DNA of 64,000 bases from an uncultured Candidatus Saccharibacteria bacterium. Lineage in GTDB: Bacteria > Patescibacteriota > Minisyncoccia > Phycocordibacterales > SIBU01. Of the stretch, positions 7,337-14,329 are shown piece after piece. The number at the start of each line of letters is the position of its first letter. Position 1 is the stretch's first letter. Location: contig CAYHDB010000001.1 of NCBI GenBank assembly GCA_964355335.1, positions 23,387-87,386 of the forward strand, given 5' to 3'. A program made the position numbers and the translations under genes. The notes beneath the pieces are model-generated. The model made no database searches. It was not told the origin of the DNA and saw nothing but the letters and a program-made list of their open reading frames with translations.

Positions 7337-8005
7337 ATGACTCCAAAATGCATAGGTATAATCATGGACGGTAATCGCCGGTGGGCGAAATCCAGAAGCT
7401 TGCCGACTTTGGAAGGACATAGACGTGGGTACGAAAAGCTAAAGGAAGTTTTTCGTTGGGCGAAAGATGCTGAATTGACCCATGTTATTGTCTATGCACT
7501 TTCTACAGAGAATTGGAATAGATCAAAAGAAGAAGTTTCATATTTGTTGGATTTGTTTCGCATGGTACTGACAGCCGAGCTTGAGACATTTAAAAAAGAA
7601 GGAGGAAAAATAATCTGCATAGGTCAGAGGGATAGATTCCCTGAAGATATTCAGAAAATGATGGACAAAGCTGAGCAGGAGACCGCCTTATTCCAAGGTC
7701 CGACTTTGGTACTGGCTCTTTCTTATGGAGGAAGAGCGGAAATCGTTGCTGCGGCCAATAAAGCAATGGTCAATGGTGTAATAACCGAAAAATCTTTCTC
7801 CGATTCATTGTGGACGAATGGCATTCCTGACCCGGATTTGATAATACGAACAGGAGGGGAGATGAGGCTTTCAGGGTTTCTTCCTTGGCAGTCGGTGTAC
7901 AGTGAATTATTTTTTACTAAAACACTGTGGCCGGATTTTGACGAAGTGGAGTTTAAGAAAATGATGTCGGATTTTTCCGAGCGTGACCGGAGAAACGGTA
8001 AATGA
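7337..8005 (+). CDS. uppS: isoprenyl transferase / undecaprenyl diphosphate synthase
   Basis: HIGIIMDGNRRWA...VYALSTENWNRS...IRTGGEMRLSGFLPWQS are the UPPS motifs. Confidence 0.9.
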   Translation: MTPKCIGIIMDGNRRWAKSRSLPTLEGHRRGYEKLKEVFRWAKDAELTHVIVYALSTENWNRSKEEVSYLLDLFRMVLTAELETFKKEGGKIICIGQRDRFPEDIQKMMDKAEQETALFQGPTLVLALSYGGRAEIVAAANKAMVNGVITEKSFSDSLWTNGIPDPDLIIRTGGEMRLSGFLPWQSVYSELFFTKTLWPDFDEVEFKKMMSDFSERDRRNGK

Positions 8006-8080
8006 CCAATCACCAATAACTGAATTACTGAATAACCATAGTTGCATTCGTGGTCATTCAGTTATAAGTTATTCAGTAAT
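8006..8080. repeat. Palindromic word repeat, family 2 (ctgaattac / ttattcagtaa)
   Basis: ctgaattactgaataacc...cattcagttataagttattcagtaa. The same word set recurs at 47447-47548 and 60095-60186. Confidence 0.8.
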
Positions 8081-9459: not shown

Positions 9460-9543
9460 GCGCGGGTGGTGAAATTGGTATACACGTACGCTTGAGGTGC
9501 GTATGCCGTAAGGCGTGGAGGTTCAAGTCCTCTCCCGCGCACA
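9460..9543 (+). tRNA. tRNA-Leu (anticodon GAG)
   Basis: Acceptor GCGCGGG/CCCGCGC, anticodon loop TTGAGGT, long variable arm, T-arm GGAGG-TTCAAGT-CCTCT. Followed by an aaaaatccc-aata-gggattttt hairpin. Confidence 0.8.
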
Positions 9544-9571
9544 AGAAAAAAATCCCAATAGGGATTTTTTC

Positions 9572-9697
9572 TTTGCGCGGAGTCCTCCATAGGAGGACGG
9601 AGAGGACTTGAAGACCTTGAGTATATCGCACGGAACGAAGTGAGTACGATACGAAAGGTGTACAGAATCTGTAAGATTCAAGACTCCTCTCCCGCGC
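9572..9697 (+). pseudogene. tRNA-Leu-derived tRNA-like remnant, ending in a partial copy of the tRNA 3' end plus CCA
   Basis: The segment starts GCGCGGAG (acceptor-like, one mismatch) and ends ttcaagactcctctcccgcgcacca, which copies the tRNA-Leu T-arm and acceptor 3' strand. The interior does not fold as a canonical cloverleaf. Confidence 0.5.
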
Positions 9698-9752
9698 ACC
9701 ATTGTAAGTTTTTTTGATTTGCACTTTGCGTTTTTAGCTTTATACTTTTCGT

Positions 9753-10304
9753 ATGCTCTATACTCGAAAAGGCGATACAGGTACTACCAAGACATTTGGT
9801 TGCGACCAGCGGATTTCCAAAAGTTCGGCTATTGCCGAGGCGCTCGGTTCGCTTGATGAGACGAATTCGTTTTTGGGGTTGTGTAAGGTACACCCAAAAG
9901 CTAAAAACTATAAACTAAAAACTAAAAGCTTTTCCGAAATAGTACACAGTGTTCAGCAAAATCTTTTTATCGTTCAGGCGGAATTGGCTGGCGCGCCAAA
10001 GACTATTTCAAAAGACAAGGTAGTTGAAGTAGAAACCATAATAGACACAATCGAAAAAGAATTGCCACCGATAAAAACCTTTTTTATTTCAGGAGGTACT
10101 GAATTGGCGTCATTGTTTGATTTTGCCCGTACACTTTCTCGTCGTGCTGAGAGGAGGGTAGTGGGTGTGAACGAGGAAAGTAAAATGAAAATCGGTGCCG
10201 ATACACTGGCGTACCTCAATCGTTTGTCCTCGTTGCTTTACGCTCTCGCTAGATTTAGCAACCATAAATGTGCTATAAATGAGGAGCCACCGTCGTACAA
10301 GTAG
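9753..10304 (+). CDS. ATP:cob(I)alamin adenosyltransferase (PduO/MMAB type)
   Basis: MLYTRKGDTGTT...AIAEALGSLDETNSFLG...NRLSSLLYALAR are family motifs. Contains a short repeat-encoded insert KVHPKAKNYKLKTKS. Confidence 0.75.
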   Translation: MLYTRKGDTGTTKTFGCDQRISKSSAIAEALGSLDETNSFLGLCKVHPKAKNYKLKTKSFSEIVHSVQQNLFIVQAELAGAPKTISKDKVVEVETIIDTIEKELPPIKTFFISGGTELASLFDFARTLSRRAERRVVGVNEESKMKIGADTLAYLNRLSSLLYALARFSNHKCAINEEPPSYK

Positions 10305-10319
10305 GTGGCGTAATCATAT

Positions 10320-10393
10320 GGTGACTATGGTGTAGCGGTAGCACGAATCCCTGTGGAGGATTCGGTTCGGGTTCAACTCCCGATAGTCACCCA
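10320..10393 (+). tRNA. tRNA-His (anticodon GTG) with G-1
   Basis: G-1 then GTGACTA...anticodon loop CTGTGGA...T-arm CGGGTTCAACTCCCG...TAGTCAC-C. Confidence 0.85.
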
Positions 10394-10720
10394 AATACGA
10401 CACCCGCGAGAGCGGGCTTTGTCGTATTTGGGTGACTAAGAAAGCCGGCTGACCGGCTTTCGTTCGGGAGTTGAAGACCTTCTCCTTAATTTATGAGTCA
10501 TTCTTATGGCGAATAAATAGGAAAGGTGTACTGCTCCTGTAAGGAGAAACTCCCGATATTTTTGGTGTGACTATCGGGAGTTGAAAGACGGAGGCGCGAA
10601 GCCGACTGTAGCCAGTCGTGGCCGAGTCGGGCCGTCTACAGGTGCCCATCATTGCTAGATGGGCTTCGAGAGTTCTTATGAGCAGAGCGAATTAGAAACT
10701 CGTGACCAACTCCCGATAGT
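10394..10720. repeat. Non-coding region made of strong hairpins and four direct or inverted fragments of the tRNA-His 3' end. Includes a candidate element at 10566-10718 with 17-bp inverted repeats derived from the tRNA 3' end.
   Basis: caactcccgatagtcaccc (10374-10392) is repeated directly at 10700-10718. It occurs inverted as gtgactatcgggagttgaa at 10569-10588, and as shorter fragments at about 10460 and 10545. Hairpins include caaatacgacacccgcgagagcgggctttgtcgtatttg and aaagccggctgaccggcttt. Confidence 0.6.
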
Positions 10721-10762
10721 CACCCTAAATTTGTTAGTTGAACTTGTACACTTTTCCTCCGT

Positions 10763-11116
10763 GTGCTTATATGTCTTTGGAACTTGAAACGAAAGGCAGA
10801 TATGAGCTTCTCTAATCTTGGCAATATACATAAATTGAATGGAGGGACGATGCGGTTTACATTTCAGGAGGTCGCCTACGTGGGAACTATTGGTAGTATT
10901 CAATACGTCCCCCTTGGGCCTGGAGCAGTTAACGTTGAGCTTCTGTCCCTTCAGCCGGTAACACAAGGCCCAGTTGTTCCTGACATTCCTCTCGAGTTTA
11001 CCTTTTCCTTCTTCGCGGCCGAGGTAAAAGACACTGCGCGAGAGTTAATTGTCCACTATCTGTTGGTCCCTCCGGGAGGTTTCGGTGACGTGATTTCCTT
11101 TCGGACCAAAGACTAA
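10763..11116 (+). CDS. hypothetical protein
   Basis: ORF only; start uncertain (possibly the Met at 10802). Confidence 0.3.
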   Translation: MLICLWNLKRKADMSFSNLGNIHKLNGGTMRFTFQEVAYVGTIGSIQYVPLGPGAVNVELLSLQPVTQGPVVPDIPLEFTFSFFAAEVKDTARELIVHYLLVPPGGFGDVISFRTKD

Positions 11117-11210
11117 CCTGTTAGTTCACATTTAAGCCCGCAGAAATGTGCGGCTTTTCTTTTATATAAAACTCAATTCACTCAACCCTGTCCAATAAGT
11201 GACCCAAAAC

Positions 11211-11246
11211 AAAACCCCCGCCCGATTACTATCGGGCGGGGGTTTT
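11211..11246. terminator. bidirectional terminator hairpin between convergent genes
   Basis: aaaacccccgcccgat-tact-atcgggcgggggtttt. Confidence 0.75.
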
Positions 11247-11257
11247 AGGAATTCGAA

Positions 11258-11593
11258 TTACTTAACTGTCTTTACCACAGGGGCTGCTACCTTGTCGTCA
11301 GTGGTCTGAATTATGTAGCTTCTCATCATTCCTGGGCCGTATGTGTAATCACCATTCCCGAATTGCATCATTCTTGAATATCCACCGCGCTGAAAACCGT
11401 ATCCGCTGTCAGCCTCGCCTAGGAAACGCCCAATGGCGATTCCTGTACAGAACACAACAATCAGGATGATTAAACCAAAAATCCATCTGGTAAAGAAGAA
11501 ACTTTTTCCGCAGGCAAAGCCGTGACCGCAGTGCGCTCCGCACTCTGATTCGTGCGAGGAACACTCACCACAACATTTATCTTTTTCGCTCAT
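11258..11593 (-). CDS. Small membrane protein with a Cys/His-rich, putatively metal-binding, N-terminus
   Basis: MSEKDKCCGECSSHESECGAHCGHGFACG followed by a TM helix (IFGLIILIVVFCTGIAIG) and a Gly/Tyr-rich tail. Confidence 0.45.
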   Translation of the reverse strand: MSEKDKCCGECSSHESECGAHCGHGFACGKSFFFTRWIFGLIILIVVFCTGIAIGRFLGEADSGYGFQRGGYSRMMQFGNGDYTYGPGMMRSYIIQTTDDKVAAPVVKTVK

Positions 11594-11658: not shown

Positions 11659-12141
11659 GTGAATATTTTATATACTTTCCTTGTGGAGAATAAAGAAAAG
11701 AAGAAGGTCGGAGTGGGTTTTGGGGTATTTGTCCTTCGTGACGGTAAAGTCTTATTGGGACAACGACACTCTGACCCGACAAAAGCAGACAGTGAGCTTC
11801 ATGGAGAAGGAACTTGGACAATGCCCGGAGGCAAGCTTGAGTTCGGTGAATCCTTTGAGGACGGTGCAGTCAGAGAGCTTGCCGAGGAGACTGGAATTAT
11901 GATCACTACGAATGATGTGCGAGTGGTCAGTCTGGCCAATGACCGTGTGCCTGACGCACATTTTGTAACTATCGGTTTGTTGTGCGAAGATTCTGTGGGC
12001 GAGCCGAAGGTGATGGAGCCGGACGAGATTACTAGGTGGCAGTGGTTTTCATTGGATGATTTGCCCTCACCACTTTTCTTCCCGAGCAAAGAAGTTATAG
12101 AAAATTATCAAGCAGAACGGTTTTATTTGGGTAATCTTTAA
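11659..12141 (+). CDS. NUDIX hydrolase
   Basis: Nudix box GGKLEFGESFEDGAVRELAEETGI. Confidence 0.85.
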   Translation: MNILYTFLVENKEKKKVGVGFGVFVLRDGKVLLGQRHSDPTKADSELHGEGTWTMPGGKLEFGESFEDGAVRELAEETGIMITTNDVRVVSLANDRVPDAHFVTIGLLCEDSVGEPKVMEPDEITRWQWFSLDDLPSPLFFPSKEVIENYQAERFYLGNL

Positions 12142-12172
12142 TCATAAATCTTAAATCTTTAATCTACCCCTT

Positions 12173-12580
12173 ATGATTCTCCAAGTCGGCGTCAAAGCGT
12201 TTTTGCGAAATAAAGAGGGAAAGTACCTGCTTATCAAACGGTCGCCGGTTAAGTACCCCGAGGTTCCAAATCCTTGGGATATTGTCGGAGGAAGAATTGA
12301 CCCAGGGAGTCCGCTTATTGATAATCTTAGGCGGGAGGTGAGAGAAGAGACAGGTTTAGAGATAACTTCCGAGCCTCGCTTGATTTCAGCGCAGGATATT
12401 CTGCGTATTGCGGATAAACACATTGTCAGACTTTCCTATGTTGCCGATGTTGCCGGGGAGCTTGTTTTGGATATGGTAGAACACACTGAATATAAATGGG
12501 TAACAGTTGAGGAGATAAAAAAACAGGACAAACTGGACATTTATGTCAGAGAAATTGTGGAGAAGGGTCTGGTTAAGTAA
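12173..12580 (+). CDS. NUDIX hydrolase (second paralog)
   Basis: Nudix box GGRIDPGSPLIDNLRREVREETGL. Confidence 0.85.
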   Translation: MILQVGVKAFLRNKEGKYLLIKRSPVKYPEVPNPWDIVGGRIDPGSPLIDNLRREVREETGLEITSEPRLISAQDILRIADKHIVRLSYVADVAGELVLDMVEHTEYKWVTVEEIKKQDKLDIYVREIVEKGLVK

Positions 12581-12596
12581 TTATTTTTTAAATCAA

Positions 12597-13286
12597 ATGC
12601 AGATAAAAATCCTATCTTGGAATATATGGTGCGATAATGACTTCGGACAGGTTAAGAATTTTTTGCTCGAATCTAAAGCCGACATTATCGGATTACAGGA
12701 AATTCTACCAGGAGATAAGAATCGCGATATTGTTTCATTTCTTTCCTCGCTCGGATATGAACACGCCGTTGCTCCGATTGGAGCGACATTTCCAGATGGA
12801 AGGATGATAACGTCAGGTATTTTCAGTAAGTATCCAATACGAGAGAGAAAGGCACACTTGCTTTCCGATGAGAGTCCGAGACAGGCGATTGAGGCCAGTG
12901 TAGATGTTGGAGACTTCAGGTTGACGATATTTTCCTTTCATTTGAAACATACACATCAACAAGATTCGGATTTACAAAATCTGCAGATGGAAAACTTGAT
13001 GCGGGTTTTGCCAAAGAAGAAGGTTGTGGTGATGGGAGATTTCAACTCAACACCTGACATGACGCCAATTAAGAGGATGCGTGAAATATATATTGATACG
13101 GACTCTGCTTCAACTCCAACTCTCAATGTCCCGCTTTTTGATTGCAAGGTTTGCGACCTAAAGGAACTTCCAAATACTCGTTTAGACTACATCTTTACGA
13201 GTAAAGATTTAACAACACATTCGTTCAAAGTTGAACCCCCGCACGGTTCTGATCATCTGCCAATCTCGGTCGTGGTGGAATTGTAG
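12597..13286 (+). CDS. endonuclease/exonuclease/phosphatase (EEP) family protein
   Basis: ILSWNIW...IIGLQE...VVMGDFNSTP...HGSDHLPISVVV. The start is taken at MQIKILSWN to avoid overlapping the upstream gene. Confidence 0.75.
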   Translation: MQIKILSWNIWCDNDFGQVKNFLLESKADIIGLQEILPGDKNRDIVSFLSSLGYEHAVAPIGATFPDGRMITSGIFSKYPIRERKAHLLSDESPRQAIEASVDVGDFRLTIFSFHLKHTHQQDSDLQNLQMENLMRVLPKKKVVVMGDFNSTPDMTPIKRMREIYIDTDSASTPTLNVPLFDCKVCDLKELPNTRLDYIFTSKDLTTHSFKVEPPHGSDHLPISVVVEL

Positions 13287-13336
13287 GTGCGTTTTCAATA
13301 TATTTTGTTTTAGAGACATTTTGCTATACTGGCCTT

Positions 13337-14329
13337 GTGGAAACAGAAATTACAATAGAGGGAAAGTCATTTCACCTTGTAAAACATAGCAAACGAAGCG
13401 ATGTCGGAGTATATAGCTCGGGCGAGCTTTTTGTGAGAGTGGGGGAGATGAGTGTGATAGACGAAATGGTCAAGCTTCACAAAAAGTTTGATGAGTTCGG
13501 TTTTCCTGTGCCGGAAATTGTTGGCCGAGGAGAGATTGCCGGTCAAGGCTATTTTCTGGAGAAATCTTTCGGAGAAAAGTGTTTTAGTTACCTATTCAAA
13601 TATGATATTGAAAAACATGGGCAGATTTCTCCCGAACTTTTCGAAAAGTTTGTGGCGGTATCAGAGAAGTTTGCTAGAGCCCAGATACGTTCTGTTTGGG
13701 ATTCTTCCTTTATAAAAGGTCGTAGTCTGCGGAGAAACGTCGGCGAGAGTACCCGAGTCTGCGAGGGGGAGGGATTTCAAAATCCTCCGTCTCATCAGAA
13801 TGAGCCACCTCCTTTTACAAAGGAGGAATTTTCCGACACTGTATCAGTCGCTGGGTTGGTAAGACCCGAGGACTTAGCAGGGGAGTTGCCGGAACACAGA
13901 GAGAAGATTTTAAAACTTTTCGATGAGTCGGTAAAAGCGATGAGTAGGTTTCCTGTCGTTCTGACTCATGGCGATTTTAATCCACATAACCTGTTTCCTG
14001 ACGGAGTAATTGATTTTGAAAAGCCGTATCATGTTTCTGTTGGGTACGATTTGGTGACTAATATTTTTCACGCGAATTACTTTCCAAGAGGGGATGAATA
14101 TTCGTATTCCAAATTGTATTTTTTCAGTCAGGAACACGAGCGCTTGTATTATGAGCGCATTGATGCTGTTTTTGTTGAGGCCGGTTTGCCGAAGTTGTCC
14201 GATTATAAAAAGCATTTTGAGTACTGTAGGGCTGTTTGGCTGACGGCTCGCAACGAAGCTACGACGGAACCCGGCAAGAAGTTTCAGCAATGGCGTTATG
14301 AACTTTTTAAAAAGAGTTATTTATCCTAA
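13337..14329 (+). CDS. Phosphotransferase (APH/choline-kinase-like) family protein carrying an in-frame hairpin-element insertion
   Basis: VLTHGDFNPHNLFPDGVIDFE is a Brenner-type kinase motif. Nt 13748-13835 encode EGEGFQNPPSHQNEPPPFTKEEFSD and form a three-hairpin element also found at 43655, 51290 and 61340. Confidence 0.6.
   Translation: METEITIEGKSFHLVKHSKRSDVGVYSSGELFVRVGEMSVIDEMVKLHKKFDEFGFPVPEIVGRGEIAGQGYFLEKSFGEKCFSYLFKYDIEKHGQISPELFEKFVAVSEKFARAQIRSVWDSSFIKGRSLRRNVGESTRVCEGEGFQNPPSHQNEPPPFTKEEFSDTVSVAGLVRPEDLAGELPEHREKILKLFDESVKAMSRFPVVLTHGDFNPHNLFPDGVIDFEKPYHVSVGYDLVTNIFHANYFPRGDEYSYSKLYFFSQEHERLYYERIDAVFVEAGLPKLSDYKKHFEYCRAVWLTARNEATTEPGKKFQQWRYELFKKSYLS

Follow-up and report, generated by a model that had tools for sequence, protein, structure and literature searches.

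Integrases that target transfer RNA (tRNA) or transfer-messenger RNA (tmRNA) genes classically have as their identity block a repeat stretching from the T loop as far as the gene's 3' end, and an element moved by such an integrase carries one fixed attachment site of its own (attP). Integrative elements of this sort, together with their integrase-less derivatives (cis-mobilizable elements and tRNA gene fragments), are the nearest described comparison for the locus analysed here, and the paper on tRNA gene fragments (PMC9897764) is among the nearest items in the literature. The locus lies behind tRNA-His in a 64-kb stretch of DNA (the window; coordinates are given on the numbering of its + strand) from a genome that belongs to the Paceibacteria (Parcubacteria, candidate phyla radiation). 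It holds two tandem modules, members of a family of small folded non-coding elements that stand behind tRNA and tmRNA genes of Paceibacteria. A module consists, in order, of a hairpin (hp1), an arm T' (the Watson-Crick reverse complement of that part of the tRNA 3' strand which extends from T loop to discriminator; in some modules a conserved hairpin, hp2, interrupts it at the acceptor/T-stem junction), a conserved core that folds and is of type A or B, and an arm T2 (the stretch of the tRNA beginning at C56 and ending with the discriminator, repeated directly). Like the integrative elements, the modules show a direct repeat from the T loop, an intact upstream tRNA, the use of tmRNA, tandem arrangement and occasional cargo (in L128; L with a number labels a comparison locus); unlike them, they have no integrase nearby, combine one core with arms for at least 24 tRNA species, contain the extra arm T', and have a strand-specific, covarying fold.

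Other described systems share single traits with the modules. Integron attC sites and cassettes and the attP of CTX phage also have imperfect palindromes conserved in structure, a strand-specific fold, arrays at a fixed site, and a hairpin that reproduces the duplex target, but the palindrome arms of the modules copy the adjacent tRNA, IntI is lacking, and the content is a structured core of about 70-120 nt, not an open reading frame (ORF). Miniature inverted-repeat transposable elements (MITEs) and repetitive extragenic palindromes (REPs) or bacterial interspersed mosaic elements (BIMEs), such as Correia elements and RAYT-associated REPs, are likewise small, non-coding, non-autonomous, intergenic and hairpin-rich and are present in many copies or none; however, the terminal repeats of the modules are target-specific, only tRNA and tmRNA 3' ends are used, the orientation is constant, and in place of the short target-site duplication of fixed length that marks a MITE there is a repeat of at least 18-21 nt with a variable right end. 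In RNAs with a tRNA-like handle (the tRNA-like domain of tmRNA, the mascRNA of MALAT1, and permuted tRNA genes), two RNA ends form an acceptor/T-stem helix with an arm at the equivalent of the 7/49 junction, and the order T1-hp1-T' (T1 being the 3' end of the tRNA gene itself) is that of a permuted tRNA gene (3' strand, linker, 5' strand); in contrast to these RNAs, the helix of the modules runs into the core without a T loop, the G.U identity pairs are erased, and no Rfam family matches. The omega RNAs of TnpB and IscB, and R2 with 28S rRNA, resemble the modules in having a core followed by about 18-20 nt identical to the neighbouring target and in being co-oriented with a structural RNA gene, but the modules have no ORF for TnpB, IscB or a reverse transcriptase, hold a second, antisense arm (T') inside, and match no omega-RNA family of Rfam. 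Group I introns interrupt tRNAs of Patescibacteria at position 35/36 in the anticodon loop (PMC13011429), whereas tRNA-His of the window is uninterrupted, the modules are 3' of the gene, and no group I family of Rfam matches.

Anatomy and arms of the modules

Positions 10393-10725 are two tandem modules, of type A (His-A, 10393-10558) and type B (His-B, 10559-10725). Their parts, the tRNA gene before them, and a third module of the window (Leu-A) are as follows.

10321-10392, + strand: tRNA-His(gtg) (ARAGORN; Rfam tRNA, 61.5 bits)
10372-10392, + strand: T1, the last 21 nt of tRNA-His (T loop to discriminator), on which all the repeats are templated
10393-10429, + strand: hp1 of His-A (A-run, GC hairpin CCCGC-GAGA-GCGGG, T-run), centre of the palindrome T1-hp1-T'
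10430-10438, + strand: T'a of His-A, GGGTGACTA, reverse complement of the acceptor 3' strand and discriminator
10439-10463, + strand: hp2 of His-A, AG-AAAGCCGG-CTGA-CCGGCTTT-CGT, between the acceptor and T-stem parts of T'
10464-10475, + strand: T'b of His-A, TCGGGAGTTGAA, reverse complement of the T-stem 3' strand and T loop
10476-10547, + strand: core of type A (GACCUU, long hairpin, GAAAGGUGUAC, hairpin hp4 with the conserved loop UGUAA)
10548-10558, + strand: truncated T2 of His-A, AACTCCCGATA, a direct repeat of tRNA positions about 57-67
10559-10565, + strand: linker TTTTTGG
10566-10585, + strand: T' of His-B, TGTGACTATCGGGAGTTGAA, an inverted repeat, contiguous and without hp2
10586-10706, + strand: core of type B (P2 with GAC/GUC, variable arm P3, extra hairpin, P4 hairpin ending in ...CGAGAGUUCUUAUGAGCAGAGCGAAUUAGAAACUCGUGAC)
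10707-10725, + strand: T2 of His-B, CAACTCCCGATAGTCACCC, identical to the tRNA-His sequence that starts at C56 and continues to its 3' end
9543-9699, + strand: Leu-A, behind tRNA-Leu(gag) (9460-9542), with hp1 (9543-9573), T'a (9574-9580), hp2 (9581-9599), T'b (9600-9612), core of type A (9613-9684) and T2 (9685-9699)

The first-pass annotation had described this region as scrambled direct and inverted copies of the tRNA-His 3' end. That the copies derive from this end is supported, with shifts of 3-7 nt in the coordinates: the exact 19-nt copy CAACTCCCGATAGTCACCC lies at 10707-10725 (given as 10700-10718), the inverted 20-nt copy TGTGACTATCGGGAGTTGAA at 10566-10585 (given as 10569-10588), and the shorter inverted and direct fragments placed near 10460 and 10545 are TCGGGAGTTGAA at 10464-10475 and AACTCCCGATA at 10548-10558, the latter complementary to 10572-10582. 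The word "scrambled" does not hold, the order being a fixed grammar (tRNA, hp1, T', core, T2) that is run through twice. The 16-mer AACTCCCGATAGTCAC is exact at 10375 (+), 10708 (+) and 10567-10582 (-) and occurs nowhere else in the window; when up to three mismatches were allowed, 0.39 matches were expected by chance, and three matches were reached in just one of 100 shuffles. A perfect 19-nt inverted repeat (10384-10402 / 10420-10438) takes in the final 9 nt of tRNA-His. Folding of the region as RNA, which the first-pass annotation had proposed, gave -214 kcal/mol for 10321-10780 against -141 +/- 6.6 kcal/mol for dinucleotide shuffles (z = -11.1). An assembly artefact is excluded because the same region is carried by two contigs, one each from two further assemblies of the same organism, ERZ4201063 and ERZ4201064 (one and zero differences over 7149 and 2115 nt).

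In His-A, T'a and T'b together are the reverse complement of T1, cut precisely at the acceptor/T-stem boundary, and hp1 gives a terminator-like match and is conserved, with changes only in the loop, in the closest relative (L003, whose ribosomal protein L19 is 88% identical to that of the window). Comparison with the intact arrays of L137, L033 and L123 suggests that the rest of T2 of His-A and hp1 of the next module were lost by deletion of a palindrome centre; in the window, AACTCCCGATA-TTTTTGGTGTGAC-TATCGGGAGTT resembles a T-hp1-T' palindrome with its centre deleted. The extra hairpin GCCCAUC-AUUGCUA-GAUGGGC between P2 and P4 of His-B is lineage-specific; L003 has its 5' arm and the start of its loop, and the similarity stops at window position 10652. 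For Leu-A, the predicted fold consists of an acceptor-like stem, hp2, a T-stem-like helix and the core. The module ends 53 nt upstream of a gene for a PduO-type adenosyltransferase, and its T2 is followed by CA, giving ...GCGCACCA, so that an A73-CCA end is encoded here but not in the tRNA-Leu gene itself.

Two sets of loci were used for comparison: 80 loci chosen solely for encoding a PduO homologue (the unbiased set), and 83 metagenome loci retrieved by a 27-nt pattern from the conserved P4 hairpin (the core-B set), of which 45 non-redundant modules with a tRNA at most 160 nt upstream were analysed. Since the pattern fixed the P4 loop, the invariance of that loop was not counted as evidence; the pattern does not extend to P2, P3 or the outer part of P4. 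The acceptor 8-mer of the module's own tRNA was found as T2 in 22 of the 45 modules and as T' in 13 of the 45 (a count lowered by hp2 and by bulges), against 1.0% and 0.5% for the 8-mers of other tRNAs. T2 starts at C56, at a constant offset after P4, throughout the family, and the direct repeat, of 18-21 nt or longer, has a constant left end and a variable right end; T2 is degenerate or truncated in 23 of the 45 modules. Alignments of T' are mostly of 17-21 nt, and T' is matched in most modules. Where the tRNA has G.U pairs, so that the two strands of the helix can be told apart, 13 positive informative tests were obtained; in every one T' agreed with the reverse complement of the 3' strand, and in none with the 5' strand. 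T' is consequently a copy of the 3' strand in antisense and does not represent the 5' half of a tRNA that has decayed. A degenerate tandem tRNA pseudogene is ruled out by the same tests.

The irregularities of T' fall on landmarks of the tRNA. The hairpin hp2 (AG, stem, CUGC-like loop, stem, CG) is conserved behind unrelated tRNAs and behind tmRNA, and its position is always between the complements of tRNA positions 66 and 65. The acceptor complement could be located in 35 modules. Of these, 21 have hp2; 13 of them lie flush at the 72/73 boundary, and there is no bulged case. The other 14 lack hp2; eight carry one additional base precisely between the complements of N73 and N72, and one is flush. 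Both positions, 65/66 and 72/73, are meaningful in a folded tRNA and not in duplex DNA.

Core fold and distribution of the family

The core of type B is a three-way junction with strong covariation, folded on the tRNA-sense strand. It is made up of P1 (T'/T2), a short A-rich joiner, P2 (G-N-C/G-N'-C), an internal loop GGA/GA, the variable arm P3, GG, and the conserved long hairpin P4, which ends in ...GUGAC and directly abuts T2. In the 45 sequences, pair 35:110 of P2 is GC in 17, CG in 12, AU in 11, UA in 3, UG in 1 and unpaired in 1; pairs 40:106 and 41:105 of P3 covary (the latter is CG in 14, GC in 14, UA in 3 and AU in 2); pair 124:146 of P4 is AU in 38 and UA in 6; and a G.U pair is conserved at 118:153 in 40 of the 45. 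The proportion of paired cells was 86.8%, against 30-40% in slid registers, and the covariation score was 0.268 against 0.107 +/- 0.007 for shuffled alignments, none of 500 shuffles reaching it. Counts of G.U against A.C were 48:8 in the T1-hp1-T' hairpins and 61:0 in the cores, and the tRNA-sense strand is therefore the one that folds, as RNA or as one particular strand of DNA. Compensatory changes beyond shuffled and slid controls and strand asymmetry, the marks of a structured RNA gene in general, are thus both present in core B. A covariance model (R1) built from 44 modules, with that of the window left out, matched the window at 10564-10728 (72.4 bits, E=6e-24) as its sole match in the 64 kb, and gave nine matches at E<1e-4 in the 80 unbiased loci. 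Cores of type A have in common GAAGACCUU, a hairpin, GAAAGGUGUAC and the hairpin hp4, the stem of which covaries freely beneath its conserved UGUAA loop.

Several likenesses to known motifs were tried and rejected. The P4 loop CUUAUGAGC...GCGAAUUAG recalls the CUGAUGA...GAAA of the hammerhead ribozyme, but has U at the essential G5 and another junction topology, and none of the ribozyme families of Rfam matches the modules. The loops GGA/GA and UGA/GAA lack the 3-nt bulge of a kink-turn. A five-codon frame passes through the P4 loop, but its variable codon falls on the nucleotide predicted for a GNA loop, and the stretch was taken to be structural and not coding. A T-loop intron whose P1-like helix would be T':T1 does not agree with the complete upstream tRNA, and the alternative fold would lose T54 and T55. 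Likenesses to the GTTC target of IS91-type elements and to the GTAG motif of REPs were inconsistent between modules, and -10-like matches within hp1, tried as a promoter, are uninformative in so AT-rich a sequence.

The first-pass annotation had named observations that would refute its reading, among them fragments confined to this spot and a locus invariant among related genomes. The pattern recurs widely. In the unbiased loci, the same layout was found behind tRNA-His (L003, L005, L009, L033, L049, L053 and L060), tRNA-Leu (L003, L020, L033 and L061), tRNA-Arg (L003 and L033), tRNA-Val (L003 and L014) and tRNA-Ser (L082), and the grammar is also seen behind tRNA-His in L041. T'b lies at most 200 nt from the tRNA in 16 of the 181 tRNAs of these loci, and most genomes have none; T' was found at all four tRNAs of L003 and at three of L033, in which tRNA-Val is closely followed by a direct repeat of its own 3' end. 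The 45 non-redundant modules of the core-B set follow 24 anticodon species, all on the strand of the tRNA, with the core-B hairpin 96-145 nt downstream of the tRNA gene. Some hits of this set first seemed to lack a tRNA, but tmRNA genes precede the modules in L110, L122 and L147; in L110 (6085-6660), where the tmRNA case was read in sequence, the tmRNA 3' end is the source of T'a, hp2, T'b and T2, and the target is therefore any gene with a T arm and an acceptor end. The core of type A was also found behind tRNA-Leu at 9613-9684 of the window and in L003, L005, L018, L044 and L123. At least two more core types share the T'/T2 frame (L049, 6663-6818, and L053, 3813-3984; L003, 6763-6907, L144 and L120); one of the further types contains GGGGTCGGG...GTGGAGGAAGGATTGGGAAAACCGTGGGTTTCCCAG, and in another P4 is replaced by GGUGCCCAGAC, a hairpin, and then AGUCGNGGG.

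Among related genomes, filled sites, empty sites and remnants were all seen at tRNA-His. The orthologous tRNA-His sites of L019, L039, L045 and L075 are empty, the tRNA leading straight into the next gene without hp1, which is therefore part of the inserted unit; L017, L043, L061 and L067 have only remnants. Arrays hold two or three modules, and their order differs (B-A-B in L137, A-B in L123 and the window, B-B in L125 and L149), and fused and truncated modules are common. At the orthologous tRNA-Leu(gag), the core is of type A in the window and L003 and of type B in L087. Near-identical cores, including P3, stand with different arms behind tRNA-Ser and tRNA-Tyr (L085, L161 and L164). In L128, about 0.8 kb with two small ORFs lies between tRNA-Ala and core B, and the direct repeat continues for 14 nt beyond the end of the tRNA. 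T' fits another tRNA in L089 and L143, and both T' and T2 do so in L041; in L089, T' matches a different tRNA fragment and T2 matches tRNA-Pro. L128 and L089 are possible intermediates of movement or rearrangement. The tRNA-His gene of L003, with a G4.U69 pair, has nine differences from that of the window in its 5' two-thirds and is identical from the T arm into the module; it thus looks chimeric, which suggests a recombination breakpoint within the gene and exchange of the module between lineages. Three modules stand behind tRNA-His in L003 (6645-7163), one more than in the window, and a further degenerate copy about 0.7 kb downstream (7860-8040) possibly brackets inserted DNA.

Explanations considered

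On balance, we lean towards reading the modules as a structured element that proliferates but is not autonomous, and that is probably an RNA bearing a pre-tRNA-like handle. The family would probably spread within and between genomes as selfish DNA, its arms being re-templated on each new host tRNA. It also seems fairly probable that the module is expressed as RNA of the tRNA sense, presumably through read-through of the tRNA transcript. A further, joint step is more tentative: the 17-21 bp helix T':T2, with the sequence of the host acceptor and T stem, may act as a pre-tRNA-like handle, by which RNase P, RNase Z and the CCA-adding enzyme may excise and stabilise the module and leave the upstream tRNA intact. 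The irregularities of the helix lie on tRNA landmarks, hp2 at 65/66 or the 1-nt bulge at 72/73, and mainly because of these landmarks a reading at the level of RNA, with T' paired to a T segment in a pre-tRNA-like helix, was preferred.

The modules are rated as a new kind of element, apparently undescribed, on the basis of negative searches of limited libraries. No description of such modules was found in a literature search, and no match to a module in the phage and plasmid collections searched with blastn; in viral contigs the core-B and core-A patterns gave no match and one chance match inside an ORF (L083). When the whole window was searched against Rfam 15 at the gathering thresholds, just five tRNAs passed, and at E<=10 nothing credible lay over 10393-10760 in a search of 10250-11300, which gave tRNAs and terminator-like noise near 11210. 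It is conceivable, and offered tentatively, that the modules represent a new class of element, a small structured cassette of RNA or DNA that colonises any tRNA or tmRNA 3' end, has a two-part antisense arm and a sense arm templated by the gene, and encodes no protein of its own, and which would thus be a target-templated, programmable element; its spread might use the tRNA-processing, repair or competence machinery of the reduced Paceibacteria cell. If this is true, bacteria with very small genomes carry a widespread, uncatalogued element in which a core is joined to arms rewritten for each neighbouring gene, and the question arises of what copies a tRNA 3' end into antisense and sense arms around a fixed scaffold. 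The modules would then give a handle on RNA processing and genome dynamics in unculturable organisms, and a naturally re-targetable scaffold would be of interest for engineering. Their terminator-like hairpins and tRNA-end fragments will mislead the annotation of tRNAs, terminators and genomic islands in these genomes.

Several points weigh against a proliferating RNA element with such a handle. T2 is decayed in about half of the modules while T' stays matched, which is awkward for a T':T2 handle; T' may outlast T2 because it is corrected within the palindrome, or because modules with intact direct repeats are lost more readily. T' erases G.U pairs of the tRNA (e.g. G3.U70 of tRNA-Ala) and is not a faithful mimic of identity. 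The hairpin hp1 resembles an intrinsic terminator and would limit co-transcription of the module with the tRNA. We know of no mechanism that writes target-specific T'a, T'b and T2 between a conserved hp1, hp2 and core. The 45 modules were gathered by the 27-nt P4 pattern, and conservation within those 27 nt is partly built in; moreover, the evidence for the fold would suit RNA and folded single-stranded DNA alike. Finally, the orthologous modules of the window and L003 are about 85% identical over 253 nt, against 73% for the flanking PduO protein, and such conservation could reflect host function rather than selfishness.

Host function is the subject of one alternative, that the modules are a cis-acting RNA of the host, conserved on the 3' side of tRNA genes and controlling termination, read-through or 3' processing. 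In the read-through transcript the tRNA 3' strand would be sequestered by T', the cores would be alike through selection or gene conversion, and the arms would co-evolve in place, so that no re-templating is required. The constant tRNA strand and the position directly downstream agree with this, as do the perfect match of T' even beside a decayed T2, the tolerance of G.U pairs in T1-hp1-T', and the persistence of orthologous modules (window and L003; L084 and L105) with compensatory changes in hp1. However, 165 of the 181 tRNAs lack T', most related genomes lack modules, and four orthologous tRNA-His sites are empty; the arrays, the truncated and fused modules and the foreign arms (L089, L041 and L143) look like turnover, and different core types occur at one orthologous tRNA, tRNA-Leu(gag) of the window and L087. 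We regard this alternative as rather unlikely.

Less probable still is the reading of the first-pass annotation as scars of integration and excision at one attB, here put as small integrative elements or their remnants at an attachment site in the T loop, with a tyrosine integrase encoded at another place in the genome; attL and attR would then be represented by T1 and T2, and the core would be arm-type protein-binding DNA. The direct repeat from the fixed C56 to the tRNA 3' end or a few nt past it, the tmRNA targets, the tandem arrays, and the 0.8-kb cargo of L128 between repeats (with the repeat extending 14 nt beyond the tRNA) all agree with it, and FtsK with a gamma domain is encoded in the window, so that a Xer system probably exists. 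Pfam scans of about 60 ORFs of the 64-kb window gave no integrase, transposase, HUH enzyme or reverse transcriptase, and no recurrent recombinase was found when the 389 ORFs within 4 kb of modules at the 83 loci were clustered, only housekeeping genes being recurrent (e.g. those for L19, RluD-like and PduO-type proteins). A single core family with at least 24 tRNA species and tmRNA is at odds with one fixed attP, covariation in the core and strand-specific G.U pairs are unexpected of duplex protein-binding DNA, and T', hp2 and the bulge at tRNA landmarks are not predicted. The other suggestion of the first-pass annotation, a tRNA-derived mobile hairpin element, comes close to the comparative picture.

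About equally improbable are cassettes of single-stranded DNA, in which the T1-hp1-T' hairpin on one strand would mimic the duplex end of a tRNA gene and be recombined by a host enzyme, the cores being the content, after the models of integron attC sites, the attP hairpin of CTX phage with XerCD, IS200/IS605, and the ends of REP-RAYT elements. The palindrome centres are variable and their geometry is conserved, sometimes with an extrahelical base; asymmetry of folding between the strands fits single-stranded DNA as well as RNA; arrays like those of cassettes stand beside a fixed site; and a palindrome centre is deleted at 10548-10585 of the window, as expected of DNA palindromes. Against this, no gene for IntI, a HUH enzyme or RAYT was found in the ORFs of the window or within 4 kb at the 83 loci, and by inspection the T-loop sequence misfits the attC R-box consensus, the palindrome base reading TTCGAAT / ATTCGAA-like where R''/R' sites read RYYYAAC ... 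GTTRRRY. The core, too, is a conserved three-way junction, beyond a palindrome, and the 65/66 and 72/73 landmarks belong to the tRNA as RNA.

An ordinary MITE with fixed terminal inverted repeats resembling tRNA, or a chance or assembly artefact, is effectively refuted: the first-pass annotation was right that a discrete element without an ORF, bounded by 19-20 nt inverted repeats, lies at 10566-10725, but these repeats switch with the adjacent tRNA gene while the interior is constant, the 16-mer is nowhere else in the window, the region is present in two other assemblies, and the covariance model matches it at E=6e-24.

Neighbouring genes and minor features

The Pfam scans of about 60 ORFs of the window gave housekeeping genes plus RecA, RecO and FtsK. 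The PduO-type adenosyltransferase beside the modules has its best relatives, at no more than 74% identity, in bins of Taylorbacteria, Nomurabacteria and Paceibacterota. A recently acquired island downstream of tRNA-His, which the first-pass annotation had suspected from accessory-looking genes, is not indicated by composition (GC is flat at 0.40-0.50 along the window) or by a recombinase, yet, when 11659-14329 is set against 9690-10700 of L003, the first NUDIX gene, the EEP nuclease and the APH-like kinase are absent from L003, in which the second NUDIX gene and Maf are present as short fragments only; gene content downstream of tRNA-His therefore differs between close relatives.

Two ORFs touch or follow the modules. 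That of 96 aa on the antisense strand (10676-10966, -), which overlaps core B, is almost certainly spurious. That of 117 aa (10763-11116, +) has no Pfam match, and tblastn of its portion from the ATG at 10850 gave no homologue among the 80 related loci; it is possibly not a gene. Just downstream of the gene for a Cys-rich membrane protein (11258-11593, -) stands a strong GC-rich hairpin of 17 bp with A and T runs on either side (+ strand, 11210-11247), possibly bidirectional, which explains all the weak Rfam matches near 11200.

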